64,000 nt of DNA from an uncultured Acidobacteriota bacterium. Lineage in GTDB: Bacteria; Acidobacteriota; Vicinamibacteria; Vicinamibacterales; UBA2999. The stretch lies in assembly GCA_963839865.1 (NCBI GenBank), contig CAWIWS010000030.1:5301-69300 (forward strand), in the 5' to 3' direction. The number at the start of each line of letters is the position of its first letter. The first letter of the stretch is position 1. Below are positions 9,510-31,072 of the stretch, in pieces. The notes beneath the pieces are model-generated. The model ran no database searches. It was not told the DNA's origin and worked only from the letters and a program-made list of their open reading frames with translations. The position numbers were made by a program, and so were the translations under genes.

Positions 9510-12426
9510 CTAGAACCGGACGCCGAAGGAGCCGAGGTAAGTGCGGCCGCCCGTCAGCCCCGGACGCGGTCTCGGGTAATTCGCGGTCGACGTGCCCTGC
9601 CCGAAACGCGCCCCCTTGACGTAGCCGGTGGGCAATCCATCGGCGTCGAGCGCGCTCGCCGCATCGACCGTAATGGTGGTGTCCCACGTGATCAGCTTGT
9701 CGTTGTTGAACACGTTGAGCACTTCGATGCGCGCCCACGGCCGCACGGTCTTCCAGACCGGAATCGAGTAGGTCGCGCCGAGATCGAAGAGCCCGTAGCC
9801 GGCGAACTCCTGGCTGCCGCGATCACCGAAGAAGAGCGTCTGCGATCCGTTGGCGCCAGAGCCCGGCAGTCGCGCGTAGCCCGGATTCCGCGACCGCTGG
9901 ATGGCGCTCAGCGGCACGCTGGCGGCGGTCAGGCTGTACGTGAGCGCCGAGTTGTAGCGCCAGATCGGGGCGATGTCGAGGCTGCCGAAGCGCCCCAGTC
10001 CCTGCTGGTAAATCGACCACAGGCGCACCTTGTGCCTCTGGAAATCGTCCAGGCGGCCCATCGGGAAGTCCCGCGCTTCGACCAGGATCTCGGGATAGTC
10101 GCCGAGCGGCGTGCCGATGCCCGGCTGGTTGGCGGCCTCGCCTTCGTAGTTGCCGTTGTTGGTGAGTTGCACCGTGTAGTGTCCCGCCACCGACCAGTTC
10201 CCGCGCACGTGATAGTCGCCCTGGAACTGCATCGCGCGGTAGTCGCGCACCGCTTCGTCGGTGTTGCGGTAGTAGGTGTTGTCGAACGTCCCGAAATTGA
10301 CGCCGCCCTGGACGACGGTCGTCTTGCCGGACGCCGACGGATCGTCGATGAAGGAATCGATGAGTCCGGTGGCCGTGCGCCAGATGTACATCGCGCGCAC
10401 CACGCCCTTTTCGCCGAGGTTCTGCCCCACCGACGCCGTCACCTCACGCGTGATCGGCGACTGCAGCCCGTCCTCGAGGAAGATGTTCGCGTTCGGGAAC
10501 GACCCGGAGACCACCGAGTAATTCGACAGGTCGAAGGCCGGCGCGAAGTCGAGTCCCTGCCCGGCCGGGCCGTTGTAGACGCTCGTCACGCGCGCCGGGT
10601 TGGCCACGGTCGTGTTGCGGCCGAAGATGCTCGACGTGTAGCGGCCCGAATAGTGGGCGTAGGACGCGCCGAGTACCGTGCGCCCGCTGCCGGTCGCGTC
10701 GTAGGTCGCGCCGATGCGCGGCACCCAGGACCCCGCGTCGGCGCCGGTGGCGCCACCGGTCGCCTCGCTCAGCGCATGCTCGTAGCGCAGCCCGATGTCG
10801 AGGCTGAGGCGGGCGGTCGGGCTCCAGCGGTCCTGCACGTAGAACGACGTCGTCGTGATGTCGATCTCGGCGCCGCGCGTCGGGATGGAGTTGCCGATCG
10901 TCGATGCGCCAGGAATCCAGACGGGGACGACGCGCCCGTTCGCGTCGATCACCGGCTTGCCCGCCACCGCGAGGTAGTCGGTGTTGAAGATGTAGCCGGT
11001 GGACGACTGCGAGTTGCCGCCGCGCAGGATGAGCTCGAACCGCTCGATGCCGGCCTTGACGTCGTGCGTGCCCCAGCCGGGGCGCGAGCCGAAGTACGAC
11101 ACGGCGCCCGTGATCTGGTTGTTGTCGCGGTCCTCGGGATCGTTGCGGTCGAAGTAGGCCGCATTGAATTCGAGGCCGCCGGGGGCCACGCGGCCGATCG
11201 TGAGGAACGGCGAATCCTGCAGGCGCGTGCTCGAGTTGCCGAACCGCGGGTGATTCGTCTTCTGCGAGTACTGCGCCGTCGCGAAGAAGCGCTGGGCGAG
11301 CACGCCGTTCCAGTTGGCCACGAGGAGGTGGCCGGGCGTGTCCTGGTTGTCACTCGCGTTGGGATCGATCGTCACCGGCAGCGAAGGCTTGAAGCTGTTC
11401 TGCCGGCGATCGGTGTACTGGACCTGCAGGGTCTGGTTCGTCATCGGCGTCGCCGTGACCTTGCCCTCCCAGCGATTCTGGTCGTCGGTCTGCTGGAACG
11501 GCGCCGCGGTCTGCGGGAGGGTAAGCGAGGTCTCGCTGGACTGCGACCGGCCGGCAAAGAAGAACCACACGCGGTCCTTGCGAATCGGCCCGCCGAAGGT
11601 GCCCTCGTAGTAGCGATCCATCTTGCTCTGCCGCTGCTGGTTGTTGGCCTTCTCGTACGGTGTTTCGTCGGTCCACGCGGAGTTGGACAGGTTGCTGCGG
11701 ATGCTGCCTGAGAACAGGTTGCCGCCGCTCTTGCTGATCACGTTGACCACGCCGCCGGAGAAGCGCCCGTACTCGGCCTGGATGCCCGACGTGAGCACCT
11801 GCGTCTCCTGCACGGCCTCTTCGATGTAGAGATCGTCCGGCCGCGCGAGGAGGTTGTCACCAATGTCCACGCCGTCGAGCAGGAACACGTTGTCATAAGC
11901 CACCGCGCCCGAAATCGTGACCTGGTTGACGTTGGGCGTGTTGTTCGTCAGACCGGGTGAGAATTCGGCGACGAGGGACGGTGTGCGCCCAATCGGCAGC
12001 GTCTCCACCTCCGGCGTGCGGATGTTGAGGCCGCCCGTGGGCCGGGTGAGGAGCGACGGGACCGAGGCCACCACCGTCACGGCTTCCGTCGCGGCCGCCG
12101 GCGACAACGTCGCGTCCAGGTCCGCCGAGCCCCCGAGCGGGACGTCCACGGCGCCGGTCACCGCCTTAAATCCGGCGAATTCGAAGGTCACCGAATAGCG
12201 GCCTGGCGGCAAACCGGCAAACTGGTACGCCCCGGCGTCGGTCACGACCGACCGGGCCCCCTGCTGGGCGGGGGATTCGGCACGGACGGTGGCGCCTGAA
12301 ATGACCAGGCCTGAGGCATCGCGGACCGTGCCGCCTAAGCACCCCGGTCTGGACGCCCTGGGCGCCCGCTGGCAGCGCCCAAAGCGCGGCGATTACCGCG
12401 GCGACGCTGAGAAAATATCGAGACAT
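9510..12426 (-). CDS. TonB-dependent-receptor-like outer-membrane protein with an N-terminal carboxypeptidase-regulatory-like domain; one apparent frameshift near 12330
   Basis: Signal peptide MSRYFLSVAAVIAALWALPAGAQG. CarboxypepD_reg-like stretch: TDAGAYQFAGLPPGRYSVTFEFAGFKAV. Plug-like stretch: ...QVLTSGIQAEYGRFSGGVVNVISKSGGN. A long beta-barrel follows, ending GRTYLGSFGVRF. Confidence 0.85.
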
Positions 12427-12722
12427 TTCTTTCCCCTTGCTCTGGGTATGAAGGACGAATTGATATGACAATAGATGACTTCATAGCAATTAGAGTGCCA
12501 AGTCAACGATTACACGCTCCCCACCGCCTTCTTGGCGTGCAAAGGGCTGAGAAGGCTGAATCGGGGGGTGAACGGGAGGTCTGGACGCGGAAAACAGGGA
12601 CGGGCAGTCAGGGGAGGAAGGGCCACCGGCCCGCGCCTTCGGTTTGTTGAATTCAGATCGCGCGCATTGGAGCCGCTCGTCCAACGGACGGGTGCCTCCG
12701 GGTCACCCCGGAGCACCGCGAT

Positions 12723-14002
12723 ATGATGCTCCACAAGATGGGACGCGAAGTTATCGCGGGGATCACCACCTTTCTGACGATGGCCTACATCGTCGTGGTC
12801 AATCCCGCCATCCTGTCGACGCCCGGCACGGGCATCCCGTTCTCCGGGGCGCTCACCGCCACCGTCCTCGTCTGCTTCACGATGACGCTCTTCATGGGGC
12901 TGTTTGCGAAGCTGCCCTTCGGCGTCGCGCCGGGCATGGGGCTGAACGCGTTCTTCACCTACGCGATCATCATCAACCGCGGCGTGCCCTGGCCCGCCGC
13001 GCTCGGCATCGTGTTCTGGGCGGGCGCGCTCTTCCTGCTGGTCTCGGCGACGCCGCTTACGCGAGCGCGTGGCGATGGCCATCCCGTCCACTCTCCGGTC
13101 CGCGACGGCCGCCGGCATCGGCCTGCTGCTCGCGTTCATCGGGCTGCAGAACGCGGGCTTCGTCGCGGCCAACCCGGCGACGATGATCGGCGTGGGGCCG
13201 CTCGGACCATCGCGCGCTGCTGTACGCTCGTGGGGCTGTTCATCTGCGTGCGGCTCAGCCGGAACCACAACCCGTTCGCCTACCTCGCGAGCATGCTCGT
13301 CGTCACGGCGTGCGCCTGGGCCGGCGGCTGGGTGGACGCGCCGGCCTCGTGGGTCAGCGCGCCGGACTTCTCGTCGGTCTTCCTCAAGCTCGACGTGTGG
13401 GGCGCGCTCAGGTGGTCGCTCGCGCCCGCGATTGTCACGGTGATGATGACCGACATGTTCGATTCGCTGTCGACGTTCATCGGCGTGGCGCACGCGGCGA
13501 ACCTGGTGGACGCGCGCGGCGAGCCCCTCAACCTCCGGCGCGGGTCTGATCGTGGACGCCGCGGCCACGCTCGGCGCGGGCCTCTTCGGCAGTTCGCCGG
13601 GCACCGCGTTCGCCGAGAGCATCGCGGGCATCCGCATGGGCGGCCGCACGGGCACGACCGCCGTGGTCACCGCGTTCTGTTTCCTTCCCTGCCTGTTCAT
13701 CGGCCCCATCGCCGCGACGATTCCTCCACTACGCCACGGCCGCGGTCCTGATCCTCGTGGGCGTCTCGATGTTCCAGTCCGTGACCCACCTCGCCTTCGA
13801 TCGCCTCGAGATCGCGGTCCCGGCGTTCGCGACGCTGCTCCTCATCCCGCTCACGTTTTCGATTACGCAGGGTATCCTGTGGGGATTCATCCTTCACGCG
13901 GTGCTGCACGCGCTCGTCGGCCGCGCGCGGGAGGTCAGCGCTCCCGCGTGGTGGCTCGCCGTGGTGTCGGCAGCCCTGCTGGTGCTGGAACATGCCTACT
14001 GA
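12723..14002 (+). CDS. NCS2-family purine permease (adenine/guanine/hypoxanthine, AzgA/PbuG-like); several apparent frameshifts
   Basis: Pieces read EVIAGITTFLTMAYIVVVNPAILS...GVAPGMGLNAFFTYAII; AIPSTLRSATAAGIGLLLAFIGLQNAGFV; TVMMTDMFDSLSTFIGVAHAANL; DAAATLGAGLFGSSPGTAFAESIAGI; FATLLLIPLTFSITQGILWGFILHAVL. Confidence 0.8.
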
Positions 14003-14561: not shown

Positions 14562-15554
14562 ATGGCTTCAATCCTGCGCTGGGGCATTCTCGGAACGGCG
14601 CGCATCAACCGTCGGCTCATCCCGGCCATGCGCGCGGCCGCGCGGAGCGACACTGACGGCGGTCGCCAGCCGCGATCGCACGCGCGCGGAGGCGCACGCA
14701 GCCGAATGGCAGATTCCCAGGGCCGTCGACGGCTACCGGCGGCTGCTCGAGGATGACGCCATCGACGCCGTCTACATTCCCCTGCCCAACAGCCGGCACG
14801 TGGAGTGGACGCTCGCCGCCATCGACGCCGGCAAGCACGTGCTGTGCGAGAAACCGATGGCCCTCACGCCGCACGACGTGGATCGCGTGGCGGCGGCAGC
14901 CGCGGCTTTCGGCGTGGTCGTCGAGGAAGGCCTGATGTATCGCCACGAACCCCTGACAGCACGCGTGATGTCGCTCGTCTCGGACGGCGCGATCGGCGCG
15001 GTGCGCGCCATCGTGGCCGGCTTCACGTACGCGCAGAGCCGCGCGGGCGATGTCCGCCTCGATCCCGCGCTCGGCGGCGGTGCGTTCTGGGACGTCGGCT
15101 GCTATCCGGTGACCTACGCCTGCCTGCGTCGCCGGGCAACGATCCCAAGATGGTCTTCGGGTCGGCGCAGTGGGGGCCGTCCGGCGTGGACGAGGAGTTC
15201 ACGGGCCTGCTGCGATTTCCCGGCGGCGTCACGGCCAACATCTACGCGGGGTTCCGCGCGGCCTACCGCACCTGGCTCGAGGTGATCGGGACCGACGGGC
15301 GCGCTGACCGTGCCCAACCCGTTCAAGCCCGGGACCGATCGAGACGCTCGAACTCGAGCGCCTCGGCCAGGTCGAGCACATCGCCGTCGCCGGCTCGTCA
15401 CTGCTCTTCGTGCGCGAGGTCGAGGACTTCGAGGCCGCGGTCCTGGACGGCGTCGCCCGCGGTCGTCAGCCTCGCCGAAAGCCGCCGGACCGCCGCCGTG
15501 CTCAGCCGGCTCTACGCCTCGGCACGCGACGCCGCGGCGTTGTATTCTCAATAG
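14562..15554 (+). CDS. Gfo/Idh/MocA-family oxidoreductase; several apparent frameshifts
   Basis: LRWGILGTARINRRLIPAMRAA; VEWTLAAIDAGKHVLCEKPMALTPHDVDRVAAAA...GLMYRHEPL (EKP motif); FWDVGCYPVTYA; VFGSAQWGPSGVDEEFTGLLRFPGGVTANIYAGFRA. Confidence 0.8.
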
Positions 15555-17031: not shown

Positions 17032-17934
17032 CTACTTCTTGGCCCGGACCGTCAGCACGGGGCACGGCGCGTGGCGGATCACGTGGTGCGTGGTCGACCC
17101 GAAGATCGCGAGGTTGACGACGCCCTTGCCGTGCACGCCGAGGACGATGAGGTCGGCGAGCGTGTCACGGGCGATGCGCTGAATCTCGGCCGACGGCTTG
17201 CCCGTCGCCACGATCGTGTCCACCTTGCACACCTCGCGCACCGCTTTGGGAACGAGGTCTTCGATGCGCGCGCGCGCCGCGTTCTCGCGCAGGATGCGGT
17301 ACTCCGAGACGGGAGGCGCGAGCAGCTCGGCCTGATCCTCGAGCTCCCACGGCACAGCGTGCACGACCGTCAGGCGGCTGCCCGCCTCCTGCGCCAGCGA
17401 CATCGCGTACTCGAGGGCGGTCAGCGACGCGTTCGAGAAGTCGGTCGCGCACAGGATGGAGGTGAACGGCCCGGGGACGGTCGGGGCCTTGTCCGCGCTG
17501 GGCGGCACCGTCAGCACCGGGCACTCGAGCTTGCGCAGCACCTTCTCGGTGACCGATCCGAGCACCAGGTGCTCGAAGCCGCCGCGTCCGTGCGTGCCCA
17601 TCACCACCAGGTCCGCGGGCATCTCCTTGGCGTTGGCCAGGATCTCCGTCACCACGAATCCTTCCTTCAAGACGGGCTTCACGTGCACGTCCGCCGGTAC
17701 GACTTCGGCCACGAACTGATCCATGCGCTTGATGAGCGCCTGGCGCGCCTGCGGCGTGAGCCCGGTCACCGCCGGCATGGGCGGGAATTCGACCGACGAC
17801 ATCACGACGGGCTCGACCAGCAGCGCGCAGATGTCGGCGCGATACCACCGGGCGACCAGAGACGCGTACTCCAGGGCGCGGCGCGAGGTGTCGGACAGGT
17901 CGATGGGGCACAGGATGCGCTGGATGGTGATCAT
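17032..17934 (-). CDS. universal stress protein with tandem UspA domains (300 aa, intact)
   Basis: [24 protein letters not shown]...[35 protein letters not shown] in the first domain. The second domain reads ...[35 protein letters not shown]. Confidence 0.9.
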
Positions 17935-18079: not shown

Positions 18080-19724
18080 ATGAATCGACGGTTCGGCCTC
18101 GTGCTTGCGCTGGTAGTCGCATCCCTCCATACGCCTGCGGCACGCGAGGCACCCGCGGCACCTCCGCCTGTGGCACCGGAGGCACCTCAGGCACCCGTGG
18201 CACCCGACGCGGGACAGGTCTTTGATGTGCTCATCAAGGGCGGCCGCGTCCTGGACGGCACGGGCAATCCCTGGTACCGCGCGGACATCGGGATCGTCGG
18301 CGATCGGATCCGCGTGATCGGATCGCTCCCCGGCGCCACGGCGAAGACCGTGGTCGACGCCGCGGATCGATTCGTGACGCCGGGATTCATCGACGTTCAT
18401 TCGCACGCCGGTCCCGGCCTGCTCACTCCGGAACTGCGCCGGGGCGAACCGCTGCTGGCACAGGGCCTGACGACGGTGTTCGTCAATCCCGATGGCGGGG
18501 GCCCCGTGGACATCGCGGCGCAGCGCGCGGGGTACGAGTCGGGCCACACCGGCACCAACGTCGGCATCTTCGTGCCGCACGGGTTCAATCCGGCAGGCCG
18601 TGATGGGCATGTCGGACCGCAACCCAGACGCGGCGGAACTCGCGCGGATGGTGGACCTCACCCGCAAGGGCATGGAGGCCGGCGGCCTCGGCCTCTCAAG
18701 CGGCCTCTGGTACGCGCCGGGCAGTTACTCGAAGACGTCGGAGGTCATCGCGATGGCCAGGGCCACGGCGCCATTTGGCGGCGTCTACGAAAGCCACATC
18801 CGGGACGAGGCGGACTACAACATCGGTGTCGTGGCGGCGGTGGACGAGGTGATTGCCATCGCCGAGGGCGGCGGCGTCCGCGGCGTGGTCACCCACATGA
18901 AGGCCCTCGGGCCCGCGAGCTGGGGACTCTCCAAGACCCTGATCGCGCACATCGACGCGGCGCGCGACCGCGGCGTCGAAGTGTTTGCCGATCAGTACCC
19001 GTACGAAGCGAGCGGCACCAGCATCGTCGGCGCGCTGATTCCCCGCTCCGCGCAGGTGGGCGGGCGCGAGGCCCTGCTCAAGCGCATCAAGGGCGAGCTG
19101 CGCCCGGAAATTCGGGCTGAGGTGAAGACGAACATCGCGAAGCGCGGCGGGGCCGACACGTTTCTCGTCAGCGAGTACGCGCCGGACACCTCCATCGAGG
19201 GCCGGCGCCTGTCGGATCTCGCGGCGAAGGCGGGCCTGTCACCGGAGGAATACGCGCTGACGCTCCTCGAGCGCGGCGATGCAGGGCTCGTGTCGTTCAA
19301 CATGTCGGAAGACGACATCGAGCGCATCATGCGCGAGCCCTGGACGATGACGTGCACGGACGGAGACCTGGGTCCGCTCAACGTGGGCAAGCCGCATCCT
19401 CGGGCCTACGGCGCGTTCGTGCGGAAGCTGGAGCGCTACGTGCGGGAGCGGAAGACGATCGACATCGCCGCCGCGATTCGGTCGATGACTTCCCTGCCGG
19501 CGACGGTGTTCGGCATCAAGGACCGCGGCCAGTTGCGGCCGGGCGCGTTTGCGGACGTGTTGATCTTCGACCTGGCGAAGGTGCACGAGCCGGCGACCTA
19601 CGCGAACCCGCACCAGCTCGCCGAGGGGATGACCGACATCCTGGTCAACGGCGTGCTGGTGCGGCGCGATGGCAAGTTCACGAGCTCACTTCCCGGGCGC
19701 GTGGTGACCCCGGAGCGGAGGTAG
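18080..19724 (+). CDS. secreted N-acyl-D-amino-acid deacylase (D-aminoacylase, amidohydrolase superfamily); one apparent frameshift near 18585
   Basis: Signal peptide MNRRFGLVLALVVASLHTPAA. Then FDVLIKGGRVLDGTGNPWYRADIGIVGDRI...FVTPGFIDVHSHA. In the second frame: GGVYESHIRDE...VVTHMKALG...VFADQYPYEASGTS...MTCTDGD...HPRAYGAFVRKL...DRGQLRPGAFADVLIFD. Confidence 0.85.
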
Positions 19725-19743
19725 GGGTGAAGTATCAGGGTTT

Positions 19744-20124
19744 CTAGTTGCCTTCAATCACGAGTTCGGGATCTTCGAGCAAGTGCTCCGTGCCTCCCGC
19801 ATCGGCGTAGTAGATGTCGTACTTGTAGCGACCGGGATTCGAATTGCCCACGAACGCGGTCTGCGTGGTCTGCCCCTTGCCGAAGCGCAGATCGCCGGAT
19901 GGGGGAATCCTCACGCACGTTCCGGCCGGAAACCGCAGGACGAACTCCGACGTGTCGAGTGGGAACTCCGGTCGCTCTTCATCTTTGCCCTTTCTCCAGT
20001 CCACGGCCCAGCTGACGATGTCGCGGTCCTTGACCTTTCGAATCTTCCAGTCCGTCTTGCTGTAGAACGCCCTGTTGGCAGCGTCCCAGTAGATCGTAAT
20101 GGTGAGCTGATGTGTCTGGGTCAT
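19744..20124 (-). CDS. small hypothetical protein S1 (126 aa, intact), paralogue of the 22880-23311 product
   Basis: MTQTHQLTITIYWDAANRAF...FVLRFPAGTCVRIPP...GRYKYDIYYADAGGTEHLLEDPELVIEGN. No signal peptide. It shares GR(Y/F)(K/R)Y...EDPE(L/I)xIxxN and a (L/I)xFP block with S2. Confidence 0.7.
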   Translation of the reverse strand: MTQTHQLTITIYWDAANRAFYSKTDWKIRKVKDRDIVSWAVDWRKGKDEERPEFPLDTSEFVLRFPAGTCVRIPPSGDLRFGKGQTTQTAFVGNSNPGRYKYDIYYADAGGTEHLLEDPELVIEGN

Positions 20125-20203
20125 AGACTCGTTCTCTCCTTCTTGGCGATCTCACAACGAGCGTTGGACGAACGATTGCTACATCGAATCCATCGTGCAC
20201 GCG

Positions 20204-22813
20204 TTACCGAGGACCTACCTTAACGCCGACCATCTCGCGAAATGGCGCCAAGGCCCGATACTTCGCGAGATCATCGTCGCCGGCGACGGCCGTGCGACTA
20301 TAGCCGCTGTCGACCGCGCGCTTCAAGAACGCCAGGGCTGTCGGATCACGGCCCGCGAGCGCGTGCACGATTGCCGCGCGATATAAAACCTGCACGTCAT
20401 CGGGTGCGAGCGCCAGCGCTTCGTCCAGGCGAGCCGCAGCCTCGGCGGAGCGCCCCGCTTTCTCCAGGTAGACGGCCAAGGATGCGGTGTTCCGCGCATT
20501 TCTGGGATCCACCTTCAATTCCTCCGCGGCCTTGTTCGCCGCCGTCAGGTAAGCCTCCCGGGCGTCCGAGATCTTTCCGAGCTTTGCATAGGCGTCTCCG
20601 AGGTTGCGATAGCCGCTGGCCGAGTTCGGCCGAAGCGCGATGCCCTTCTTGTAGGCGTCGATCGCCTTCTCGTACTCGCCCTTTGCGTGGTAAAACGCGC
20701 CGATATTGATGTAGGCGCCATTCGATGGCCGCACCGCGATCGACTTCTCGTAATTCGACAGGGCGCGTTGGTCGTCGCCAAGCATCTGATAGACCGTTCC
20801 GAGTTGCTGGAAACCGATGTAGCTGTCGGGCTGGAGGGCGACGAGCTTCTCGAAGGCCTGCGCGGCCTCCTGGTACCGAGCGGCGTTGAACAATGCCAAA
20901 CCCAGGTCGTTGTAGTTGCCCCAATAACTCGGCCGGAGAGCGATGGCTCTTTGGAATTCGTCGATCGCCTCATCGACGTGGCCCTGGCGCGCGAGAATCT
21001 GGCCCAGCTGGCGGCGCGCGTCGTCGTAGGTCGGCCGGACCGCGAGTGCTTTCTTGAGTTCGTCAACGGCATCGTCCGCCTTGCCGCTACCGGCCAGCGT
21101 AGCGGCCAGGGCCAGACGCACCTCCGGCCTATCCGGGTCGAGCCTCAGCGCGGTCGTGCCTTCATCAATCGCCCGCCGCACCCACGAGGGCTCCCTGGTC
21201 TCGGCGTACTGACGCCAATAGGTCTCGCCGAGAGCCGCATGCGCCAGGGCGAATTTGGGATCGAGTCGGATGGCGTCCGATAACGACGCGGCGGCGGCCT
21301 CGAGATTGCCTTTCACGTCGCGACGATCCATGTAGGCCCTTGCCTGCCAATACGACGAAAGCGCGCCGGGGTCGCTCGTCGGCGGCCGGTCCACCTGCGG
21401 CCGGGCCGGGCCCGATACGCGGATCGACATCGCCTCGCTGACCGACATCGCCATTCGGGACTGCAGCTCGAAGATGCGGCTGAAGAGCCCGTCGAAGGAA
21501 TTCGCCCACGCGATGGAACGATCGGGTCTGACCAGGCTGACGGTGACTCGCAGCTGGTCTCCAGACTGTTGAACGCTGCCTTCGATCATGAAGCTGGCAC
21601 CCAATTCGGACGCCATCTTCGACAGTTCCGGGTTTCGCAACCGCGCTTCGACAACCGCGGCGCGGGACAAGACCGTCAGCGAGGGCGCGGCGGCCAGACT
21701 CGCGATGAGGCTCTCCGAGAGTCCCGCCGCCACGTAGTCTCTCGACGGATCGCCACTCATGTTGGTCAGCGGCAGGACGGCGACGACGGCCGGCGTCGCT
21801 AGTGAATCCCTGGCAACCGGCGTGGCCAGGAAGCGCCACGTCGCGACGCCGGCCACGATCAGGATCGCCACGATCGCCGACGCCATCAATACCCCGCGAG
21901 ACAACGCGCGCGCTGCCGACACGCTGCCCAGGGGCGCACCGATGACGGCATCCAACCGCTGCAGCACCTCGTGCGCCGATGCCGGCCGCTCCGCCGGGTC
22001 GCGCGCGAGGAGTGCGGCGACGAGATGCTCCAACTCCGCGGGCACCAGCGGCCCTATCGACGACAAGGGCGGAGCGTCGCTGCTCAACTTTGCGGTGGCC
22101 AGCGAGACAGCATCGTTCCCGGGAAAAGGCCGGCGGCCGCCCACCATCTCGAACAGCATCACGCCGAGCGCGTAGAGGTCGGCGCGCTCGTCAACCGCGG
22201 ACGAGACCATCTGCTCCGGCGCCGCATACCCAGGCGTGCCCATGAAGCCGGGTCCGCTCGTCGTGTGCCCCGCCGCCGTGACGGTGGTCCCGGTCGCCAG
22301 CATCCGCGCGATGCCGAAGTCGAGGACCTTCACCTGCCCGTCGGGACCCACGATGACGTTGCCCGGCTTGAGGTCGCGATGCACCACGCCCTGCGCGTGC
22401 GCCGCGGCGAGGGCCCGCGCCATCTGGCACCCGATGCCGACCGCCTCCGCCACCGGCATCGGCCCGCGCCGGTTTCGCTCGGACAGCGTCTCGCCCTCGA
22501 CGTACTCGAACACGAGGACGACGTCGTCTTCGTCCTCGAGGACGTCGAAGACGGTGGCGATGTTGGGGTGATTGAGCGCCGCGACGGCCCGCGCCTCGCG
22601 GAGCAGGCGGGCGCGGCCCTGCGAGCCTTCTTCGTCGGCGGCGCGCAGCGTCTTGAGGGCCACCTTGCGGTGCAGCCGCGGGTCGTCCGCCAGCCACACC
22701 GCGCCCATTCCGCCACTGCCGATGTGGCGAACCACGCGATAGGGGCCGACGGAAGTGCCGGGTTCGACCAGCCTCATGTGGGGAGGACGGCAGAGGATAA
22801 CACCGAACCGCAC
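20204..22813 (-). CDS. Ser/Thr protein kinase K1 with one TM helix, a periplasmic VAVLP(L/F)xNxSGD-type domain and a TPR array (869 aa, intact; alternative start ATG at 22777)
   Basis: Kinase motifs GSGGMGAVW, VALK, HRDLKPGN, DFGIA and GTPGYAAPE. TM helix LMASAIVAILIVAGVATW. Then VVAVLPLTNMSGDPSRDYVAAGLSESLI, followed by more than 8 TPR-like repeats (AIALRPSYWGNYNDLGLALFNAARYQEAAQAFEKLVALQP...). Confidence 0.9.
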   Translation of the reverse strand: MRFGVILCRPPHMRLVEPGTSVGPYRVVRHIGSGGMGAVWLADDPRLHRKVALKTLRAADEEGSQGRARLLREARAVAALNHPNIATVFDVLEDEDDVVLVFEYVEGETLSERNRRGPMPVAEAVGIGCQMARALAAAHAQGVVHRDLKPGNVIVGPDGQVKVLDFGIARMLATGTTVTAAGHTTSGPGFMGTPGYAAPEQMVSSAVDERADLYALGVMLFEMVGGRRPFPGNDAVSLATAKLSSDAPPLSSIGPLVPAELEHLVAALLARDPAERPASAHEVLQRLDAVIGAPLGSVSAARALSRGVLMASAIVAILIVAGVATWRFLATPVARDSLATPAVVAVLPLTNMSGDPSRDYVAAGLSESLIASLAAAPSLTVLSRAAVVEARLRNPELSKMASELGASFMIEGSVQQSGDQLRVTVSLVRPDRSIAWANSFDGLFSRIFELQSRMAMSVSEAMSIRVSGPARPQVDRPPTSDPGALSSYWQARAYMDRRDVKGNLEAAAASLSDAIRLDPKFALAHAALGETYWRQYAETREPSWVRRAIDEGTTALRLDPDRPEVRLALAATLAGSGKADDAVDELKKALAVRPTYDDARRQLGQILARQGHVDEAIDEFQRAIALRPSYWGNYNDLGLALFNAARYQEAAQAFEKLVALQPDSYIGFQQLGTVYQMLGDDQRALSNYEKSIAVRPSNGAYINIGAFYHAKGEYEKAIDAYKKGIALRPNSASGYRNLGDAYAKLGKISDAREAYLTAANKAAEELKVDPRNARNTASLAVYLEKAGRSAEAAARLDEALALAPDDVQVLYRAAIVHALAGRDPTALAFLKRAVDSGYSRTAVAGDDDLAKYRALAPFREMVGVKVGPR

Positions 22814-22879
22814 CAGGCCGCCGCTGGGCGCGGCAACCGGTGCGGTCCGGGACGAGGCTCAGGCTGGCGGGACGCCGGG

Positions 22880-23311
22880 CTAGTTCTCGGGGATCTCAAT
22901 CTCGGGGTCTTCGGTGAATCCGTTGGCCGTCACGTTGTACCTGAAGCGGCCCTCGGCGGCCCCGTCCAGGCTCAGCCGAATCCAGCCGTCCTTGATCAGG
23001 ATCGGCTGGCCGCCCCACGGGCCTTCCTTCGGGAACGTGATCTCCACGGCGATCGCATCATCGGAAGCCAGGTTCACGACCGTCCACTCGATGTGGCCGG
23101 GCCCGGCGGTCATCAGGTGCGGCGACGTGCGCACGCGGATGCCGCCGTCGACCGTGTAGAGAAAAATCGTGGCCTGCGATGTCCGGCCGGCAGCCGCGGC
23201 CGCGAGGGTCCGGACCGGTGCACGGCGTGCGGCGCTCCGGGCCGGCTTCTTCTTCGGGACCGTCTTCTTCACCGGTTTCTTCGCGGACGGCTTCTTTTTC
23301 TTCTTGCTCAT
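22880..23311 (-). CDS. small hypothetical protein S2 (143 aa, intact) with a Lys-rich N-terminal tail; paralogue of S1
   Basis: MSKKKKKPSAKKPVKKTVPKKKPARSAARRAP...ATIFLYTVDGGIRVRTSP...AVEITFPKEGPWGG...GRFRYNVTANGFTEDPEIEIPEN. Its ATG overlaps the K2 stop (ATGA at 23308-23311). Confidence 0.7.
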   Translation of the reverse strand: MSKKKKKPSAKKPVKKTVPKKKPARSAARRAPVRTLAAAAAGRTSQATIFLYTVDGGIRVRTSPHLMTAGPGHIEWTVVNLASDDAIAVEITFPKEGPWGGQPILIKDGWIRLSLDGAAEGRFRYNVTANGFTEDPEIEIPEN

Positions 23312-25928
23312 CGTTTCACCTCTGCCGGGTTGACGACTAACGCCGCGAATCGCGGCAGCGGCCGGAGTTTCTCGAAGTCTTCTTCCGTGGCAATCGACCG
23401 GGACGTGATTCCTCCGGCCATGGCCCTCTCGATGGCGGCCAGCGCCCGATCGGTGCGGCCGGCGAGAGCGTGGACGACGGCGGCCCTCAGCTGCACCTGC
23501 CCGTCATCGCCCGCGAGCCGTTCCGCGGCGCCGAGGCTCTTGAGCGCCGCCGCGTCGTCACCGGCCTTTGGCCTGGTACACGGCGAGCCGCGCAATCACG
23601 CGCGCGTCGGCGGGGCTGACCGACACCTCCTGCTCCGCCAGCTTCACCGCCTGGCGGTACGCCCGGAGCGCATCCGCCTTCCGGCCCAGGTGCGTGTACG
23701 CGTCGCCAAGATTGCGGTGGGTGATGGCGCCCAACGGTCGAATCAACAACGCCCCTTCATAGGCGGCGGCGGCCTTCGCATACTCGCCCTGGCCGTAGTA
23801 GATGGTGCCCATGCTCGAGAACGTCTCGGCGCGCGGCTGGATGGCGGTCGCTCGCGAGTAGTAATCGAGGGCGCGCGCGTCGTCGCCCATGGACTGCGAC
23901 GCGGCGCCGGCCTGCGTGAGGAACAGCGACGAATTGGGCGACAGCGCAATGGCCTTCTCGAACGCCTCCAGCGCCTCGGCGTACTGCGATGCCTGGTAGA
24001 GCGACAGGCCCATGTCGGCATACAACGTCGACGGAGTTCGGCCGGATCGCGCTGGCCTTCTTGAATTCCGCGCGGCCGGCATCCAATTGTCCCTGGCGCA
24101 TCAGCACGCGACCCATGAGGCGAATGGCTTCCTCGGACGTCGGCTGCAGCGCGATCGCGCGCTCGACCTCCCGCCGGGCTTCGTCGTACTTGCCGCTGCG
24201 GAACAAGCGTCATCGCGGCGATGTAGCGCACGCTGGGCCGATCGGGTTCCAGACCCACGGCCACGCCCGTCGATTCGACCGCCTTCAGCGCCCAGGCCTT
24301 GTCGTTGGTCTGCACGTACATCTGCCACTGGGCTTCCGCCAGGCTGGCATGCGCGAGGGCGAACTTCGGATCCGCCGCCACGGCGTTCTCGAATTCCTTG
24401 AGCGCCGCTTGTGTGTTGCCCGCCAGGTCGCGCCGGTCGAAGAAGGCGCGGCCTTTCCAATAGGCGATCTGCGCCGGCTCGCTCGACGTCGGCAACGCCG
24501 CCGGCTTCTGCTGCGCCCCCGACGGCGCCTGCGCGGCGAGAGCGTCGGTCAGCGCGGTCGCCAGCTCGCCTTGCAGTGCGAACAGGTCCGCCGAGGGCGC
24601 TTCGACGGTCTTGCCCCAGGCCACGGGACTGATCGGTCCGCACGAGATTGAGCGTGACGCGCAAACGGTTCGACACCGATTGCACCGTGCCTTCCACCAG
24701 GTAACTGGCATCGAGCGCCTGGACGAATCCGGCACGGTCGGGATGCTGCTGGCGGGTCTCGTCCACGGCGCCGCGCGAGAGGACCGTGACCGAGCGGGAC
24801 GGCGGCGAGGCTCGTGATGAGGCTCTCCGCCAGGCCGGCGCCGAGGTAATCGTTCGACGTGTCACCGCTCATGTTCTGCAGCGGCAGGACGGCGACCACC
24901 GGCATCACCGGACCGTGAGCCGCCGGCCACTGCACGCGCACGACGACCGCGGTGACCACGGCAATGGCGAGCGCCGCGGCCAGCAGCGTGGTGCGCGGAA
25001 TGCCCCGGCGGATCAAGACCGTCCGTCGCGCGAGCGGCGAGGACTCGGCATCGCGAAGCGGACTCAGTTCCACCAGCACGCCGTCCGCGGTGGCCGGGCG
25101 CTTGCCCGGCTCGCGCTCGAGCAGCCGGGCCACGAGGCCCTCGAGGGCCGGAGGGACCCAGAGGCCCGAGGCCGTGAGCTTCGGCGCCTCGTCCCGGAGC
25201 ACCGAGGTGGCCAGCGCCACTGCGTCGGTGCCCGGGAACGGTCGCCGGCCGCTGACCATCTCGAACAGCATCACGCCGAGGGCGTAGAGATCGGCACGGC
25301 CATCCACGTTCCGCGACAGGTACTGCTCGGGCGCCGCATATCCCGGCGTGCCGACCAGGCCGCCGCCGATGGTGCCCGGCACGCTGTGCCCCATGTCGGC
25401 GCCGGCCGGCACCAGGCGCGCAATGCCGAAGTCGAGCACCTTGGCGCGCCCATCGGCGCCCAGCACCACATTGGACGGCTTGAGGTCACGATGGATGACG
25501 CCCTGCGCGTGCGCCGCGGCGAGGGCATCGGCAAGCTGCCATCCGACCTCGATCGCCTCCGGGACCGTCATCGGCGCGCGCTGCAGGCGCGTGGCGAGCG
25601 TGTCCCCCTCGACGTACTCGAAGACGACGATGACCTGGCCGTCGACGTCGAGAACGTCGTGGACGGCGGCGATGTGCGGATGATTCAGCGCGGCGGCGGC
25701 GCGGGCCTCGCGCAGCAGGAGTTGGCGGCCTTCACTGGTATCGCTGTCGGCGCCGCGGACCGTCTTGAGGGCGACCTTCCGGTGCAGGCGCGGGTCCTCG
25801 GCCAGCCAGACCACGCCCATGCCGCCGGCACCAAGCTGGCGGATGATCCGATAGGGTCCGACGGCTGATCCGGCGTGCACGTGGCTCCCGAAGGGGTGAA
25901 GGGCTGGCTGTCGGCCAGCAGAATACAT
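23308..25928 (-). CDS. Ser/Thr protein kinase K2, paralogue of K1 with the same architecture; at least 5 apparent frameshifts
   Basis: VGPYRIIRQLGAGGMGVVWLAEDPRLHRKVALKTV...HRDLKPSNVVLG...DFGIARLV...GTPGYAAPEQ. TM helix LLAAALAIAVVTAVVV. Then VVAVLPLQNMSGDTSNDYLGAGLAESLI. TPR pieces lie in four frames and end ...FEKLRPLPRFAALVVNPAEVKR. Confidence 0.8.
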
Positions 25929-25931
25929 TAG

Positions 25932-27199
25932 TTAACTGTCGCCGGTTCCGCGTGATCAAGCGGACGCTGCGCTGATACGTCAGGTACGCCGCCGCCCACT
26001 GGAGCATCACCGACAGGCGATTGCGAAACCCGATCAGGAACAGGATGTGGACGAAGAGCCACATGAGCCATCCGAGGGCGCCGGACAGCCGCAGCCATCC
26101 GAAGTCGGCGATCGCCGCCGCGCGGCCGATCGTCGCCATGTTGCCGGGATCGAAATAGCGAAACGCCGTCGTCGGCTCGCCGCGCAGCCGGCGAAGGACG
26201 TTCGTGGCCGCCAGCCGCGCCCATCTGCTTGGCCACCTGGGCGACGCCCGGCAAGCGGCTTCCCCGTCTGGTGCGTGAAGCAGGCGAGGTCGCCGACGAC
26301 GAACACGTCGGCATGGCCGGCCACCGAGAGGTCGGGCTCCACGATCACGCGGCCGGCGCGATCGAGGCGGGCCCGAGGTCCCGGCCAATCGGCGACGCCG
26401 CCACGCCGGCGGCCCACAGGATGGTGTGCGCCTCGATGCGCTCGGCCGCCGATCGTGACGGCGCCCTCCTCGACGTGCGTGACGCCGTCGCCTTCCACGA
26501 CCGTGACGCCGAGGGCCTGAAGCGAGCGCCGCGCCGAGGCGCGCAGGCTCTCGGGAAAGGACGGCAGGATCGACGGGCCGGCCTCGACGAGCAGGATCCG
26601 CGCGGACGCCGGATCGATGGCGTCGAACTCGGAGCGCAGCGCCTGCCGCGCGATCTCCGCCAGGGCGCCGGCAAGTTCCACGCCGGTGGGCCCCCCGCCG
26701 ATGATCACGAAGGTCAGCAGGAACCGCTGGCGCGACCGGGTCGGGATGGCGCTCCGCCTCTTCGAACGCCAGCAGCAACCGCGCGCGGATCGCCAGCGCG
26801 TCGTCGAGCGTCTTCAGCCCGGGCGCGACGCGCGCCCCAGTCGTCGTGGCCGAAGTAGGCATGCGTCACGCCGGCCGCGGCAATCAGGTAGTCGTACGGC
26901 ACGGCGTCGCCGCTGGTCGAGCCACACCTGCCGCGTCGTCGTGTCGATGCGCTCGACGGTGCCGAGCAACACGCGCAGGCGCGGCTGCGTCGCGCAGGAT
27001 CCAGCGGATGGGCGACGCGATGTCGCCCGGGCGACAGCCCCGCCGTGGCCACCTGATACAGCAGCGGCTGGAACACGTGGTGGTTGTGGCGGTCGATCAG
27101 CGTGACGCGGCACGGCGCGCCGGCCAGGCGCCGGGCCGCGGCCAGGCCGGCAAATCCGCCGCCGATGATGACGACGTGCGGCAGGTCGGCGTCGGACAC
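25932..27199 (-). CDS. ndh: type II NADH:quinone oxidoreductase (NDH-2); several apparent frameshifts
   Basis: HVVIIGGGFAGLAAARRLAGAPCRVTLIDRHNHHVFQPLLYQVATAGLSPG; IIGGGPTGVELAGALAEIARQALRSEFDAIDPASARILLVEAGPSILPSFPESL; C-terminal FRYFDPGNMATIGRAAAIADFGWLRLSGALGWLMWLFVHILFLIGFRNRL. Confidence 0.8.
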
Positions 27200-27203
27200 G
27201 ACG

Positions 27204-28494
27204 TCTATTCGTACCGCAGGGCCTCGACGGGATCAAGCGACGCCGCGCGGCGCGCCGGCCAGTAGCCGGCCAGGACGCCGACGGCCACCGACGTCGCCGA
27301 GGCCCGACGCGACCGCCCAGAGCGGCGGCGTGGCCGGGAACGTGGGGGCGACGAGCGCGATCAGCAGGCCGAGGGCCGACGCCAGGACGACGCCGGCCAG
27401 GCCGCCCGCGCCCGAGAGGATCGCCGCCTCGAAGAGGAACTGCCGCAGCACCTCGCGGCGGCGCGCGCCAATCGCGAGGCGGACGCCGATCTCGCGCGTA
27501 CGCTCGGTCACGCTGATGATCATCACGTTGGCGATGCCGATGCCGCCGATCAGCAGGCTCACCGCAGAGCAGCGCGATCGTCGCGATGAAGATCTGGATG
27601 CCGATGCGATCGAACTGCGCGATGATCTGGTCCGCGGTGTTCATCGCGAAGTTGTCCTCGGCGCCCGGCGGCACGTGGCGCAGCAGCCGCAGGATCGTCT
27701 GCGGCCTCCGCGCGGGCCTCCTCGCGCATCCCGGGCCGGGCCCGGATGTAGAGCACCATGTTCCGCGCGTCGGGGAACTTGAGGCGCGCCGTGTTCACGG
27801 GGATCGCCACCACCGAGTCGTTGCGGTTCTCGCCGAAGAACGTGCCCTTGCGCGGGGCCAGTTCGCCGATGACGTAGTAGCGGTCGCCGCCGAGCAGGAA
27901 CGACTGCCCCACCGACGAGCCCTGGCCGAACAGCGCCCGCGCGACGCTGGCGCCGAGCACCGCCACCTGCGCGCGCACGCGCTCCTCGGTGTCGGTGAAC
28001 GGCCGGCCGCCCACGAATTCCGCGCCGACGATGTCGTAGAAGTTCGGCGAGATGCCCTCGATGAGGACGGTGTCCGACTCGTTGTTGCCCGCCCGCGCGG
28101 TGAGGGTGCGCGTGCTCGTGACGGCCGGCACGATCAGCTCGATGCCGACGTCGCGAATCGCGGGCCCCAGCTTCTCGATCACCGGCGCGTACTCGGCCCG
28201 CAGTTGCGGACGCTGGACGTCCAGCTCCGTCGGGGCCGAATACGGCTCGCCGCTGTAGTGATACGCGAAGATGTTGTCGGTGCCCAATTCGCGGAACAGC
28301 AGCGCCACGCTGTTGCGGAGCCCCACGAGCGTGGAGGCCACGAGCACCACGGTGACGATGCCGATGACGATGCCCACGATGGCGAGGGCCGAGCGCGCGG
28401 GCTGGGCGCGCAGGGACTCGATCGCGAGCGTCGCGGCCTCGTTCAGCTCGTTGCCGGCGACGTCGAACGCGCCTCGAGGGGGTTGCGTGGCCAT
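27204..28494 (-). CDS. MacB/FtsX-type ABC transporter permease B (MacB_PCD + FtsX); apparent frameshifts
   Basis: [52 protein letters not shown]...[17 protein letters not shown]...[12 protein letters not shown]. Then [51 protein letters not shown], ending [19 protein letters not shown]. Confidence 0.8.
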
Positions 28495-28496
28495 GG

Positions 28497-29725
28497 CTAG
28501 TCGCTCCGAATCGCGCTGATGACGTCGATGCGCGTCGCGCGCCGCGCCGGATACCAGCCGGCGGCCAGCCCGCTCGCCGCCGAGGCGGCCACGCTCCACG
28601 CCACCGTCGCCGGCGCCACGCCGAGCGGCACGTCGAGAAGGCGCGCGAGCATCGAGACCAGCGCGACGGCCACGAGGGTGCCGGCCGCGCCGCCCACGAG
28701 CGACATCATGCGCGGACTCGGCGAGCACCTCGCGCATGATTTGCTGCCGCGTCGCGCCGAGCGCACGCCGCACGCCGATCTCGCGCGTGCGCTGCGTCAC
28801 CGAGACCAGCACCGTGTTGGTCACGACGACCATCGCCGCGAGCAGCGCCATGAGCGAAATGGGTCCCGCCGCCGCGCCGATGCGTTGCGAGAGGTTGGCG
28901 ACGAAGCTGCGCGCCGCGTCGGGCGTCAGCACGTCGAAGTTGTCGGCGACCCCGGGCGCCAGGGCCCGCTGCGCGCGCAGCGAGATGCGTGCGCGGTCCT
29001 CGCCCACGACGGAGTCGTAGCCCGTCGGCGGCCTTGGCGAAGATCTGCAGGGTGCGGGGCGCGCCGAACGCCCGCTCGAACGCGGTCAGGGGGATCCACA
29101 CGTACTTGTCGAGCGATGCGCCGCCGGAACTGCCCAGGCGCTCCTGCACGCCGATGACCTCGAACCGGCGGCCCGCGATCCGAATCGGCTGGCCGAGGGG
29201 CTCGCTCACCGGGAAGAGCGCGTCGGCGACGTCGGCGCCAATCACGGCGACCTGCGCGCCGCTGGCATCCTCGTCCGCGCGCAGGAAGCGGCCGCGCGCG
29301 ATGCTCAAGTCGCGGAGGCCCGCCAGCACCGACGTCGTCCCGGTGATCGACACGCCTTCGAGCTTGCGGCCCGCCGACGACACGTCCGCCCTGGTCTGCG
29401 CGTTCGGGGCGTAGTCCACGAGGCCGCCGGCGTAGCGCTCGAGGAACTTGAGCTCGCTCCGCCGCATCGGCGGGTTGCGCTGGAGTTGCTCCTGGAGTTC
29501 CCGGCGGGAGATGCGCCCGGGCGAGGCGACCTGCGCCAGCAGGAATGTATCGGAGCCAAACGTCCTCGCCGTGGTCATCCGCGCGTACATCGCGACGCCG
29601 TCGAGGGCCGCGACGACGAAGACGATCGTGGCCACGGCCACGGCGATGGCCAGGGCGCCGAGGCCCGCGCGCAGGGGGTTGCCGACCAGGGCCGCCCCGC
29701 CTTGTCTGACGGCTTCACGCAACAT
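28497..29725 (-). CDS. MacB/FtsX-type ABC transporter permease A (MacB_PCD + FtsX); apparent frameshifts
   Basis: MLREAVRQGGAALVGNPLRAGLGALAIAVAVATIVFVVAAL...AQVAVIGADVADALFPVSEPLGQPIRIAGRRFEVIGVQE. Then [37 protein letters not shown], ending GWYPARRATRIDVISAIRSD. Confidence 0.8.
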
Positions 29726-29793
29726 TCGATACCATTAGACGCCCCCGTGGGACCCGAGGACGCAAATGTGCGTCAAAGAGACTGTCTGCATTC

Positions 29794-31072
29794 ATGACCC
29801 GACGAACCGCCCTCATTCTGGTTGTTGTCCTCATCATAGCCGCCGCCGCGGTCGTCATGCGCCGCCGCGGACCCGGACGCGGTGGCGGTTGATCTCGCGA
29901 CCGTGGGGCGGACACCCGTCCTCCAGTCGTTCGTGACGGCCTCCGGCGAGATCGTCGCGAACCGCTACGCCGACATCGGGTCGGCGTCGATGGGCCGCCT
30001 CGTCGCCCTTGCCGTGAAGGAAGGCGACAGGGTCAAGGCCGGCCAGCTGCTGGCCCGGATCGATCCGGTGCAGGCCTCCAGTTCGTCGGACGCCGCGACG
30101 GCCTCGATCCGCGCATTCGAGGCCGAGGCGCGCGGTGCCGCCAACCAGGTGAAGGCCGCGCAGGGCGAACTCGACGCCGCGCGCGCACGCGCCACCGAGG
30201 CCACGAAGGCGCTGGGCCGCGCCCGGGAACTGCGACAGGCCGGCCTGACGCCCCAGTCCGACTTCGACGCCGCCCAGGCCAACGCCGACTCCGCGGAAGC
30301 GCAACTCGCGTCCGCGCAGGCCTCGCTCCAGCGCGCCGAGCAATCACGCGACGCGGCCGAGCGCCGCGTCACGCAGGGGCGCGCCGAGGGCGCGCGCGCC
30401 CGCGACACGCTGTCGAAGACCGAAATCACGGCGCCGATCGACGGCGTGATCACCCGGCTCGAGGTCGAGGAAGGCGAGATGGTCGTGATCGGCGTGCAGA
30501 ACCAGCCCGGCACGATTCTCATGACCGTGTCGGACCTGAGCACGATCAACGCGGAAGTGAAGGTCGCGGAGGCCGACGTGCTGCGCCTCGCCCTCAACAA
30601 CCCGGCGACCGTGACGCTCGAAGCCGTGCCAGGCCGGCGCTACGCCGGTCACGTGGTCGAGATCGGCGCGAGCGCATTGCCGCAGGTGGGCACGCAGGCG
30701 GCGGCGCGGGAGTTCAAGGTCAGCGTGCGCCTCGACGGTGATGTCGCGCAGCTGAGGCCAGGCCTCACGTGCGACACGGAGATCCTCGTGGCTGAACAGA
30801 AGAACGTCCTCACGGTCCCGCTGCAAGCGGTGGTCCAGCGGCCCAACCCGAAGGCGGGCACGCCGGGACAGGCGGCGGACGTCTCGGGGGTCTTCGTCGT
30901 GAAGGACGGCTCGGCGACATTCGTCCCGGTGACCACGGGCATCCTGGGCGGGCTCTCCATCGAGGTCGACGGCATCGGTGACGGAACCGAGATCGTAGCC
31001 GGTCCGTTCCAGGCGCTGCGCGAGTTGAAGGACGGCAGCCGCGTCCGCGCGCGAACCGCCCCAACGCGATAA
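29794..31072 (+). CDS. periplasmic adaptor subunit (HlyD/MacA family membrane fusion protein); one apparent frameshift near 29870
   Basis: TM anchor MTRRTALILVVVLIIAAAAVV. Barrel-sandwich stretch: VKEGDRVKAGQLLARIDP. Long coiled coil. Then EITAPIDGVITRLEVEEGEMV...TILMTVSDLSTINAEVKVAEADV...RYAGHVVEIG. Confidence 0.85.

Follow-up and report, generated by a model that had tools for sequence, protein, structure and literature searches.

The DNA analysed here comprises 64,000 nucleotides of contig CAWIWS010000030.1 from an uncultured Acidobacteriota bacterium of the order Vicinamibacterales; this whole stretch is referred to below as the window. Between positions 19744 and 25928 it carries two paralogous gene pairs, each composed of a Hanks-type Ser/Thr kinase with a TolB-like domain and tetratricopeptide repeats (TPRs), named K1 or K2, and of a small protein, S1 or S2, encoded directly downstream. 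That S is a dedicated partner of the kinase is well supported. Our favoured reading, to which we assign a probability of about 55%, is that the region holds two copies of a conserved kinase-S module in which S acts as a dedicated accessory subunit of this particular kinase clade. All four genes are located on the minus strand. Open reading frames (ORFs) define S1 (19744..20124, 126 aa), K1 (20204..22813, 869 aa, frame intact) and S2 (22880..23311, 143 aa), whereas K2 (23308..25928) is distributed over six frame segments. The coordinates of S1, K1 and S2 and the intact frame of K1 agree with a sequence-only reading made earlier, which had described the region as a tandemly duplicated kinase-partner or kinase-substrate unit.

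The pairing of the two genes extends far beyond the window. The sequence-only reading had raised the question whether S-like genes sit downstream of kinase-TPR genes in other Acidobacteriota. They do so in 58 of 63 loci, where the S gene directly follows a kinase-TolB-like-TPR gene, including loci with quite different neighbourhoods. The order was found in all 18 S2-type loci for which upstream DNA is available and in all seven second (K1-type) pairs with downstream DNA. As the 18 loci belong to one genus and share a 15-kb synteny block (mt21-moly-ndh-K-S-amidohydrolase-acetyltransferase-gcpE), they are not independent, and the weight rests on the other sets. S directly follows the kinase at seven of seven distant loci from other genera or families that have no ndh, amidohydrolase or gcpE neighbours, at three of three loci of genomes G202 and G255, where S had been missed by the first profile, in 17 of 20 cases from other families of the class and in six of eight from other Acidobacteriota classes. 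Of 301 genomes sampled from the class, 52 were positive for S with a broad profile; they represent 11 families and 24 of 128 genera. Ten genomes outside the class were positive as well. The genome under study encodes about 30 Hanks kinases, but an S gene follows K1 and K2 only, and a motif scan and the profile each found exactly two S genes in this genome. The same-genus genome G235 has neither K nor S.

A trace of the module was observed in another member of the genus. In G186 (C60; L042:6022-6291) a deletion scar forms an 89-aa frame that joins kinase residues ~76-128 to S2 residues ~112-142. At this scar, between molybdopterin oxidoreductase and amidohydrolase, the ndh gene and the greater part of both K and S have been lost. 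Open frames of 1012 and 1088 aa that seemed to fuse K to S were rejected as artefacts of stop-poor high-GC DNA, as K and S lie in different frames.

At the K2/S2 junction the stop codon of the kinase overlaps the start codon of S2 in the sequence ATGA (23308..23311, minus strand). The junction reads ...AAA CGA TGA / ATG AGC AAG with GAGGTG just upstream, and the 4-nt overlap is conserved in all K2/S2-type pairs (GET-MSKKK junction, 16 loci). The K1 stop and the S1 start are separated by 79 nt, and an AGGAG resembling a Shine-Dalgarno sequence was read from the sequence 11 nt 5′ of the S1 ATG (20136..20140, minus strand). Both the overlap and the 79-nt gap had been recognized earlier and are real. 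A promoter/terminator scan between the genes revealed nothing above the shuffled expectation.

K1 is composed of a Hanks-type Ser/Thr kinase domain (Pfam Pkinase PF00069, E 1e-49), one transmembrane (TM) helix, a TolB-like domain with the VAVLPLTNMSGD segment (VAVLPLxNMSGD) and a long array of repeats matching Pfam TPR families, which closes with an NCBIfam TPR end-of-group domain (NF047558 TPR_END_plus, residues 810-862). The K2 region encodes the same architecture, with a Pkinase match of E 3e-44 on its first segment. Their kinase domains are 63% identical over 272 aa and their TPR regions 44-46%, in accordance with the earlier description of two paralogues of the same build. The translations of both retain the catalytic motifs, i.e. 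the G-loop GxGxxG, VALK, HRDLKPxN, DFG and GTPGYAAPE. K1 and K2 are bitopic receptor kinases with a cytoplasmic kinase domain and a periplasmic TolB-like domain and TPR array. K1 is 65% identical to the second kinase of the related locus L003, and orthologue alignments suggest ATG 22777 as a possible alternative K1 start.

The relationship between S1 and S2 is more distant. BLASTP detects only a 29-aa C-terminal match that is not significant (E 0.023). Alignment of a profile of eight S1-type proteins with the S2-type profile by hhalign, in contrast, gave a probability of 98% and an E-value of 2.3e-13 over 102 columns, and the same fold is predicted for both proteins. S1 and S2 are thus remote homologues with one predicted fold, and the paralogy proposed earlier proved significant in a proper alignment. 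The AlphaFold2 model of S1 is all-beta (mean pLDDT 84), and the protein is devoid of a signal peptide, TM helix or basic tail. In S2, a disordered Lys/Arg-rich tail (residues 1-40) precedes a beta-sandwich (residues 43-143); the all-beta model reaches a pLDDT of 80 overall, ~95 for residues 41-143 and <50 for residues 1-38. More than 216 S2 homologues were found, all of which begin with MSKKK and carry a Lys-rich tail of about 40 residues. S1 is 33% identical to its L003 orthologue (E 5e-10). Word-based searches with these two proteins returned only self-matches, and an exhaustive hmmsearch with a two-sequence S1 profile yielded 10 matches only. One of the 10, P0130, is a repetitive, cadherin-like protein of 2546 aa with low GC content; it matched via a Y-x-Y motif and was dismissed as an S homologue. 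Since the S1 branch is too divergent for a word search, S1 orthologues were located by synteny, in the position following K1-type kinases.

Very few positions of S are fully conserved. Among 27 diverse S domains with a mean column identity of 25%, invariance is limited to three residues of a C-terminal Y-x-Y...D-P-E motif, namely a Tyr, the Asp and the Pro; a Trp and a Glu are nearly invariant. In the models of both proteins the Asp-Pro is placed in the last beta-hairpin, 8 residues from the C-terminus. Asp118-Pro119 of S1 (codons at 19768..19773, minus strand) sits between strands 113-117 and 120-123, and Asp135-Pro136 of S2 (codons at 22904..22909, minus strand), part of an EDPE motif, between strands 132-134 and 137-140. 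Thr62 and Pro64 of an RVRTSPQ loop are also invariant in 30 S2-type sequences. No model in Pfam, NCBIfam or PADLOC matches S1 or S2. Down to E<=10, no Pfam family was found for the 30 S2-type or 8 S1-type members besides a weak resemblance of the tails to HC2, and PDB sequence searches with both S profiles gave noise only (E>0.7). S is a small protein family without a database description, and our literature search found no publication on the kinase-S module.

Export signals are present in about half of the S orthologues, and the other half are predicted to be cytoplasmic. Several cytoplasmic forms are predicted. Some have a polybasic tail, which is N-terminal in the S2 type and C-terminal in others. 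Further members begin with a TM helix followed by positive charges, a topology that implies a cytoplasmic S domain, and a last group, comprising S1 of the window and members from genera g4/g7, has no appendage at all. Exported forms are predicted from a signal peptide or a lipobox, often contain a coiled-coil linker and have 2-4 cysteines in the domain. Cysteine pairs are restricted to members with export signals, which supports the localisation calls. Exported and cytoplasmic forms both occur throughout the phylum, suggesting that the domain crossed the membrane several times. The partner half of the earlier kinase-partner or kinase-substrate proposal stands. As about half of the S proteins are exported and equipped with cysteine pairs, however, the role of a kinase substrate is ruled out for the family as a whole, leaving it conceivable for S1 and S2. 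It is unusual for a partner to have switched repeatedly from one side of the membrane to the other; if true, this would constrain how the partner communicates with the kinase.

Phylogenetic trees place the origin of the two pairs well in the past. In the kinase tree, 17 K2-type and 9 K1-type sequences form separate clades with support values of 100/100 and 100/99, respectively. The S tree largely mirrors this topology, with an S2 clade (97/94) and an S1 group (80/88) on very long branches; L015_p2, the partner of a K1-type kinase, falls nearer to S2 with weak support. As the K and S trees both split into type 1 and type 2, the two genes were duplicated as a unit. In a larger kinase tree K1 and K2 are sister groups (support 0.90) inside the genome's own family, with pairs from other genera branching outside. 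The tandem duplication noticed earlier is thus retained as a unit duplication, which was an ancient event within this family and not a recent one. Thereafter the copies took different courses. Of the 18 syntenic loci, 8 still carry K1/S1, which evolves at about three times the rate of K2/S2. The K2 clade has a long stem (0.56) and short tips (median 0.10 vs 0.34 for K1). K2/S2 is the slow copy, which gained the Lys tail, became fixed beside ndh and is highly constrained.

The broken frame of K2 deserves separate consideration. Its frame junctions are located near 24741-24790, 24587-24636, 24205, 24026 and 23567. A tblastn alignment with intact orthologues spans K2 residues 1-856 at 62-76% identity through frames -3, -1, -2, -3, -1 and -2. 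Codon phase drops by one at each junction, so that all five events are single-base insertions in the same direction; the segments contain neither stops nor deletions. The same +1 shifts occur in the neighbouring amidohydrolase (e.g. 18582) and in a xanthine permease (13522-13728). A GFO-family oxidoreductase (14638-15545), ndh and the permeases upstream of it are frame-broken as well, and rpoB, elsewhere in this genome (C21:104072-108272), is spread over three or more frames. With 5.18 Mb in 30 contigs, the assembly nevertheless scores only 64.6% complete. The uniform direction of the insertions, the shifted neighbours and rpoB, and the preserved identity of every segment to the orthologues led us to regard the K2 shifts as probable assembly artefacts, and K2 is taken as intact in vivo. 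The opposite interpretation, a decaying K2 pseudogene whose role has been taken over by K1/S1, would account for the fact that K2 has five frameshifts, whereas K1, S1 and S2 have none. We consider it very improbable in view of the shared +1 direction, the fragmented rpoB, the low completeness of a genome in so few contigs and the well-kept segments. A pseudogene label for K2 is likely a mis-annotation, and pseudogene calls in this genome are unreliable unless checked against reads.

Across the window, single-base insertions occur at ~0.5-1 per kb in high-GC genes, and many genes are broken. Over S1 and the TPR-encoding half of K1 (window 19500-21500), GC content is clearly lower, at 0.61-0.64 as compared with 0.69-0.72 around, and there are no frameshift errors in this part. 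Its low GC content fits faster evolution of the K1/S1 copy, and the lack of errors in it may reflect a GC dependence of assembly errors.

In its predicted fold, S comes closest to a self-cleaving Asp-Pro peptidase. In Foldseek searches against the PDB, SO1698 from Shewanella oneidensis was the first match for both S models. With the S1 model, ranks 1-7 were all SO1698 entries (E 4e-7 to 5e-6, TM-score 0.59-0.63), a roughly 70-fold advantage over the next protein and a roughly 500-fold one over cupredoxins. With the S2 model, SO1698 occupied ranks 1-3 (E 1.3e-4, TMt 0.51-0.58), narrowly ahead of pseudoazurin. The SO1698 entries in the PDB are 3njh, 3nji, 3njk, 3njl and 3njm, with the mutants D116A, P117A, S114A and D37A according to their titles. 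SO1698 is the type member of the Pfam family DP-EP (PF08985, formerly DUF1888; the family name was confirmed). It is reported by Osipiuk et al. (2012) to cleave its own chain at the Asp116-Pro117 bond, nine residues before the C-terminus. DP-EP and S are both single-domain beta-sandwiches of about 120 residues, and the two S models share the SO1698-like fold. By chain position, the Asp-Pro of S is found 8 residues from the end and Asp116-Pro117 of SO1698 9 residues. In contrast, D37 and S114 of SO1698 have no conserved acidic or Ser counterpart in S. To our knowledge, DP-EP proteins are not linked to a receptor kinase gene, and a PF08985 search of 401 Acidobacteriota genomes found no true DP-EP member. 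Judging from the predicted models, S is best filed as DP-EP-like in fold and not as a DP-EP member.

Cupredoxins also resemble S in their Greek-key beta-sandwich. Pseudoazurin, plastocyanin, amicyanin, the CuA domain of N2O reductase and laccase/CueO domains matched both models with E-values of 2e-4 to 1e-3, but with lower TM-scores than SO1698 in the case of S1. An assignment of S to the cupredoxins was rejected: the His/Cys/His/Met copper site is absent, and S2-type proteins contain no Cys and no conserved His or Met.

Hanks-type kinases with genetically linked partners are known from other bacteria, for instance the mycobacterial pknB operon with FHA proteins, PknH-EmbR and the PknG-GlnH-GlnX operon. 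Like K-S, these systems combine a eukaryote-like Ser/Thr kinase in an operon with a small substrate, adaptor or co-sensor. Unlike their partners, S represents a new beta-sandwich family, being neither an FHA protein nor a transcription factor or solute-binding protein, and its orthologues are found on either side of the membrane. The periplasmic half of K1 and K2 (VAVLPLxNxSGD plus TPR) resembles that of CadC-like one-component sensors, in which a TM helix is combined with a periplasmic TolB-like/TPR region. The NCBIfam CadC match of the kinase is weak (E 4e-9, below its cut-off), and CadC-like sensors have a DNA-binding output domain instead of a kinase. We know of no S-like partner of such sensors. 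Anti-phage kinase systems were considered and rejected. The PADLOC matches (PD-T4-6, mad6) cover the kinase domain only (K1 ~20-300), none was obtained for S1 or S2, and the conserved housekeeping synteny of the locus (ndh, gcpE, amidohydrolase) also argues against a defence function.

As an accessory subunit of its kinase clade, S would be made in step with the kinase and in stoichiometric amounts. S1 and S2, which have no export signals, would act at the cytoplasmic face, the polybasic tail anchoring S2 to the membrane or to a polyanion. Both might bind the kinase domain, serving as a regulator or as a substrate/adaptor, and the invariant Asp-Pro hairpin might undergo DP-EP-like autoproteolysis as a maturation or switch step. 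Several observations weigh against this model. The occurrence of S on either membrane side does not sit easily with one conserved binding interface, and the ~4 kb upstream of five S genes contain no kinase, namely those of L050 (G130:C28), L053 (G136:C11), L055 (G137:C1), L072 and L073. PF08985 (gathering score 25 bits) misses S1 and S2 even at E<=10 in their own genome, with the S2 model the cupredoxins nearly equal SO1698 in score, and the demands of folding can suffice to conserve an Asp-Pro at a tight hairpin. Furthermore, the Thr of the RTSPQ loop is not kept across the cytoplasmic S members and is replaced by Ala in g4/g7. One could go further and ascribe the adjacency to inherited synteny without functional coupling, S being an unrelated small structural protein that happens to follow the kinase. 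The whole 15-kb neighbourhood is indeed kept in the genus, which deprives the 18 loci of their independence. This explanation has hardly any probability in our view, because the pairing survives where all other neighbours differ, through a duplication and across classes, because S stands beside no other kind of kinase in the genome and because the 4-nt overlap is conserved.

Two further alternatives accept the link to the kinase and differ from the accessory-subunit model in what S does. S1 and S2 might be phosphorylation substrates, with a loop Thr/Ser (e.g. Thr62 in RVRTSPQ) as the target and altered binding of the Lys-rich tail to DNA, RNA or membrane as the consequence. The absence of export signals from both proteins, the invariance of Thr62 and Pro64 in the S2 type, the translational coupling of K2 and S2 and a weak resemblance of the polybasic tail to histone H1-like HC2 (4 of 30 members, best E 0.04) are compatible with such a role. 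We nevertheless regard it as doubtful. The loop Thr is exchanged for Ala, Val or Ile in several cytoplasmic members, and the exported, disulfide-bonded half of the family is beyond the reach of the kinase domain. Moreover, N-terminal TM anchors can take the place of the basic tails, and some members have no tail at all, a pattern that fits membrane tethering better than nucleic-acid binding. Alternatively, S might be an autoproteolytic co-sensor, periplasmic or cytoplasmic, in which acid-favoured cleavage at Asp-Pro exposes ...ED-COOH or frees a C-terminal octapeptide to be read by the TPR array or on the kinase side. Here the top structural match of both models, the invariant Asp-Pro near the C-terminus and the many periplasmic orthologues beside the TPR array point in one direction, and a published article (PMC11655445) cites SO1698 as a self-cleaving endopeptidase active at low pH. 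On the other hand, the DP-EP profile finds nothing, cytoplasmic S proteins, including S1 and S2, cannot reach the periplasmic TPR array, and D37 and S114 of SO1698 have no conserved equivalent, so that we judge this possibility improbable. A bolder proposal would have S as a divergent, kinase-dedicated branch of DP-EP, in which Asp-Pro autoproteolysis provides a one-shot or pH-dependent switch that sets kinase activity and has been moved repeatedly between the periplasmic and the cytoplasmic side; we offer it as a speculation with low odds.

Hanks-type receptor kinases are abundant in Acidobacteriota, and almost none of them has a known ligand, partner or output. The present results tie one kinase clade to an obligate small partner protein with a confidently predicted fold and a three-residue signature (Y...DP). 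Asp-Pro autoproteolysis is a concrete biochemical hypothesis that is testable in E. coli. The solitary S copies could reveal what S does alone; the one in L050 is closely related to an S from the same genus, that of L054, which is linked to a kinase.

In the window, the two pairs end a seven-gene array that was described earlier as two permeases, ndh, K2, S2, K1 and S1. The genes are co-directional, but the array as such is not conserved. Its conserved core is ndh-K2-S2(-K1-S1). The ndh gene for a type II NADH dehydrogenase (25732..27199, minus strand), present as frame-broken ORF pieces, is a conserved upstream neighbour of K2-type kinases in 15 related loci, whereas the permeases are missing from the position upstream of ndh in all relatives examined. 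Compared with about 15 related loci, a MacA-like adaptor and two FtsX-type permeases are inserted here between molybdopterin oxidoreductase and ndh (window 27204-31072). On the other side of the module the window contains a tandem universal stress protein gene (17032-17934; Pfam Usp, E 5e-60) in place of the GNAT acetyltransferase of its relatives. In the related locus L003, the second K-S pair is separated from the amidohydrolase by a 701-aa ORF (11604-13709, minus strand), which has no Pfam match and is absent from the window. Finally, three MAG contigs labelled as Acidimicrobiia (L013, L016) or Cyanobacteriota (L018) have the gene order of Vicinamibacterales and 66-92% protein identity to Acidobacteriota loci; an error in their taxonomic labelling or binning is probable.

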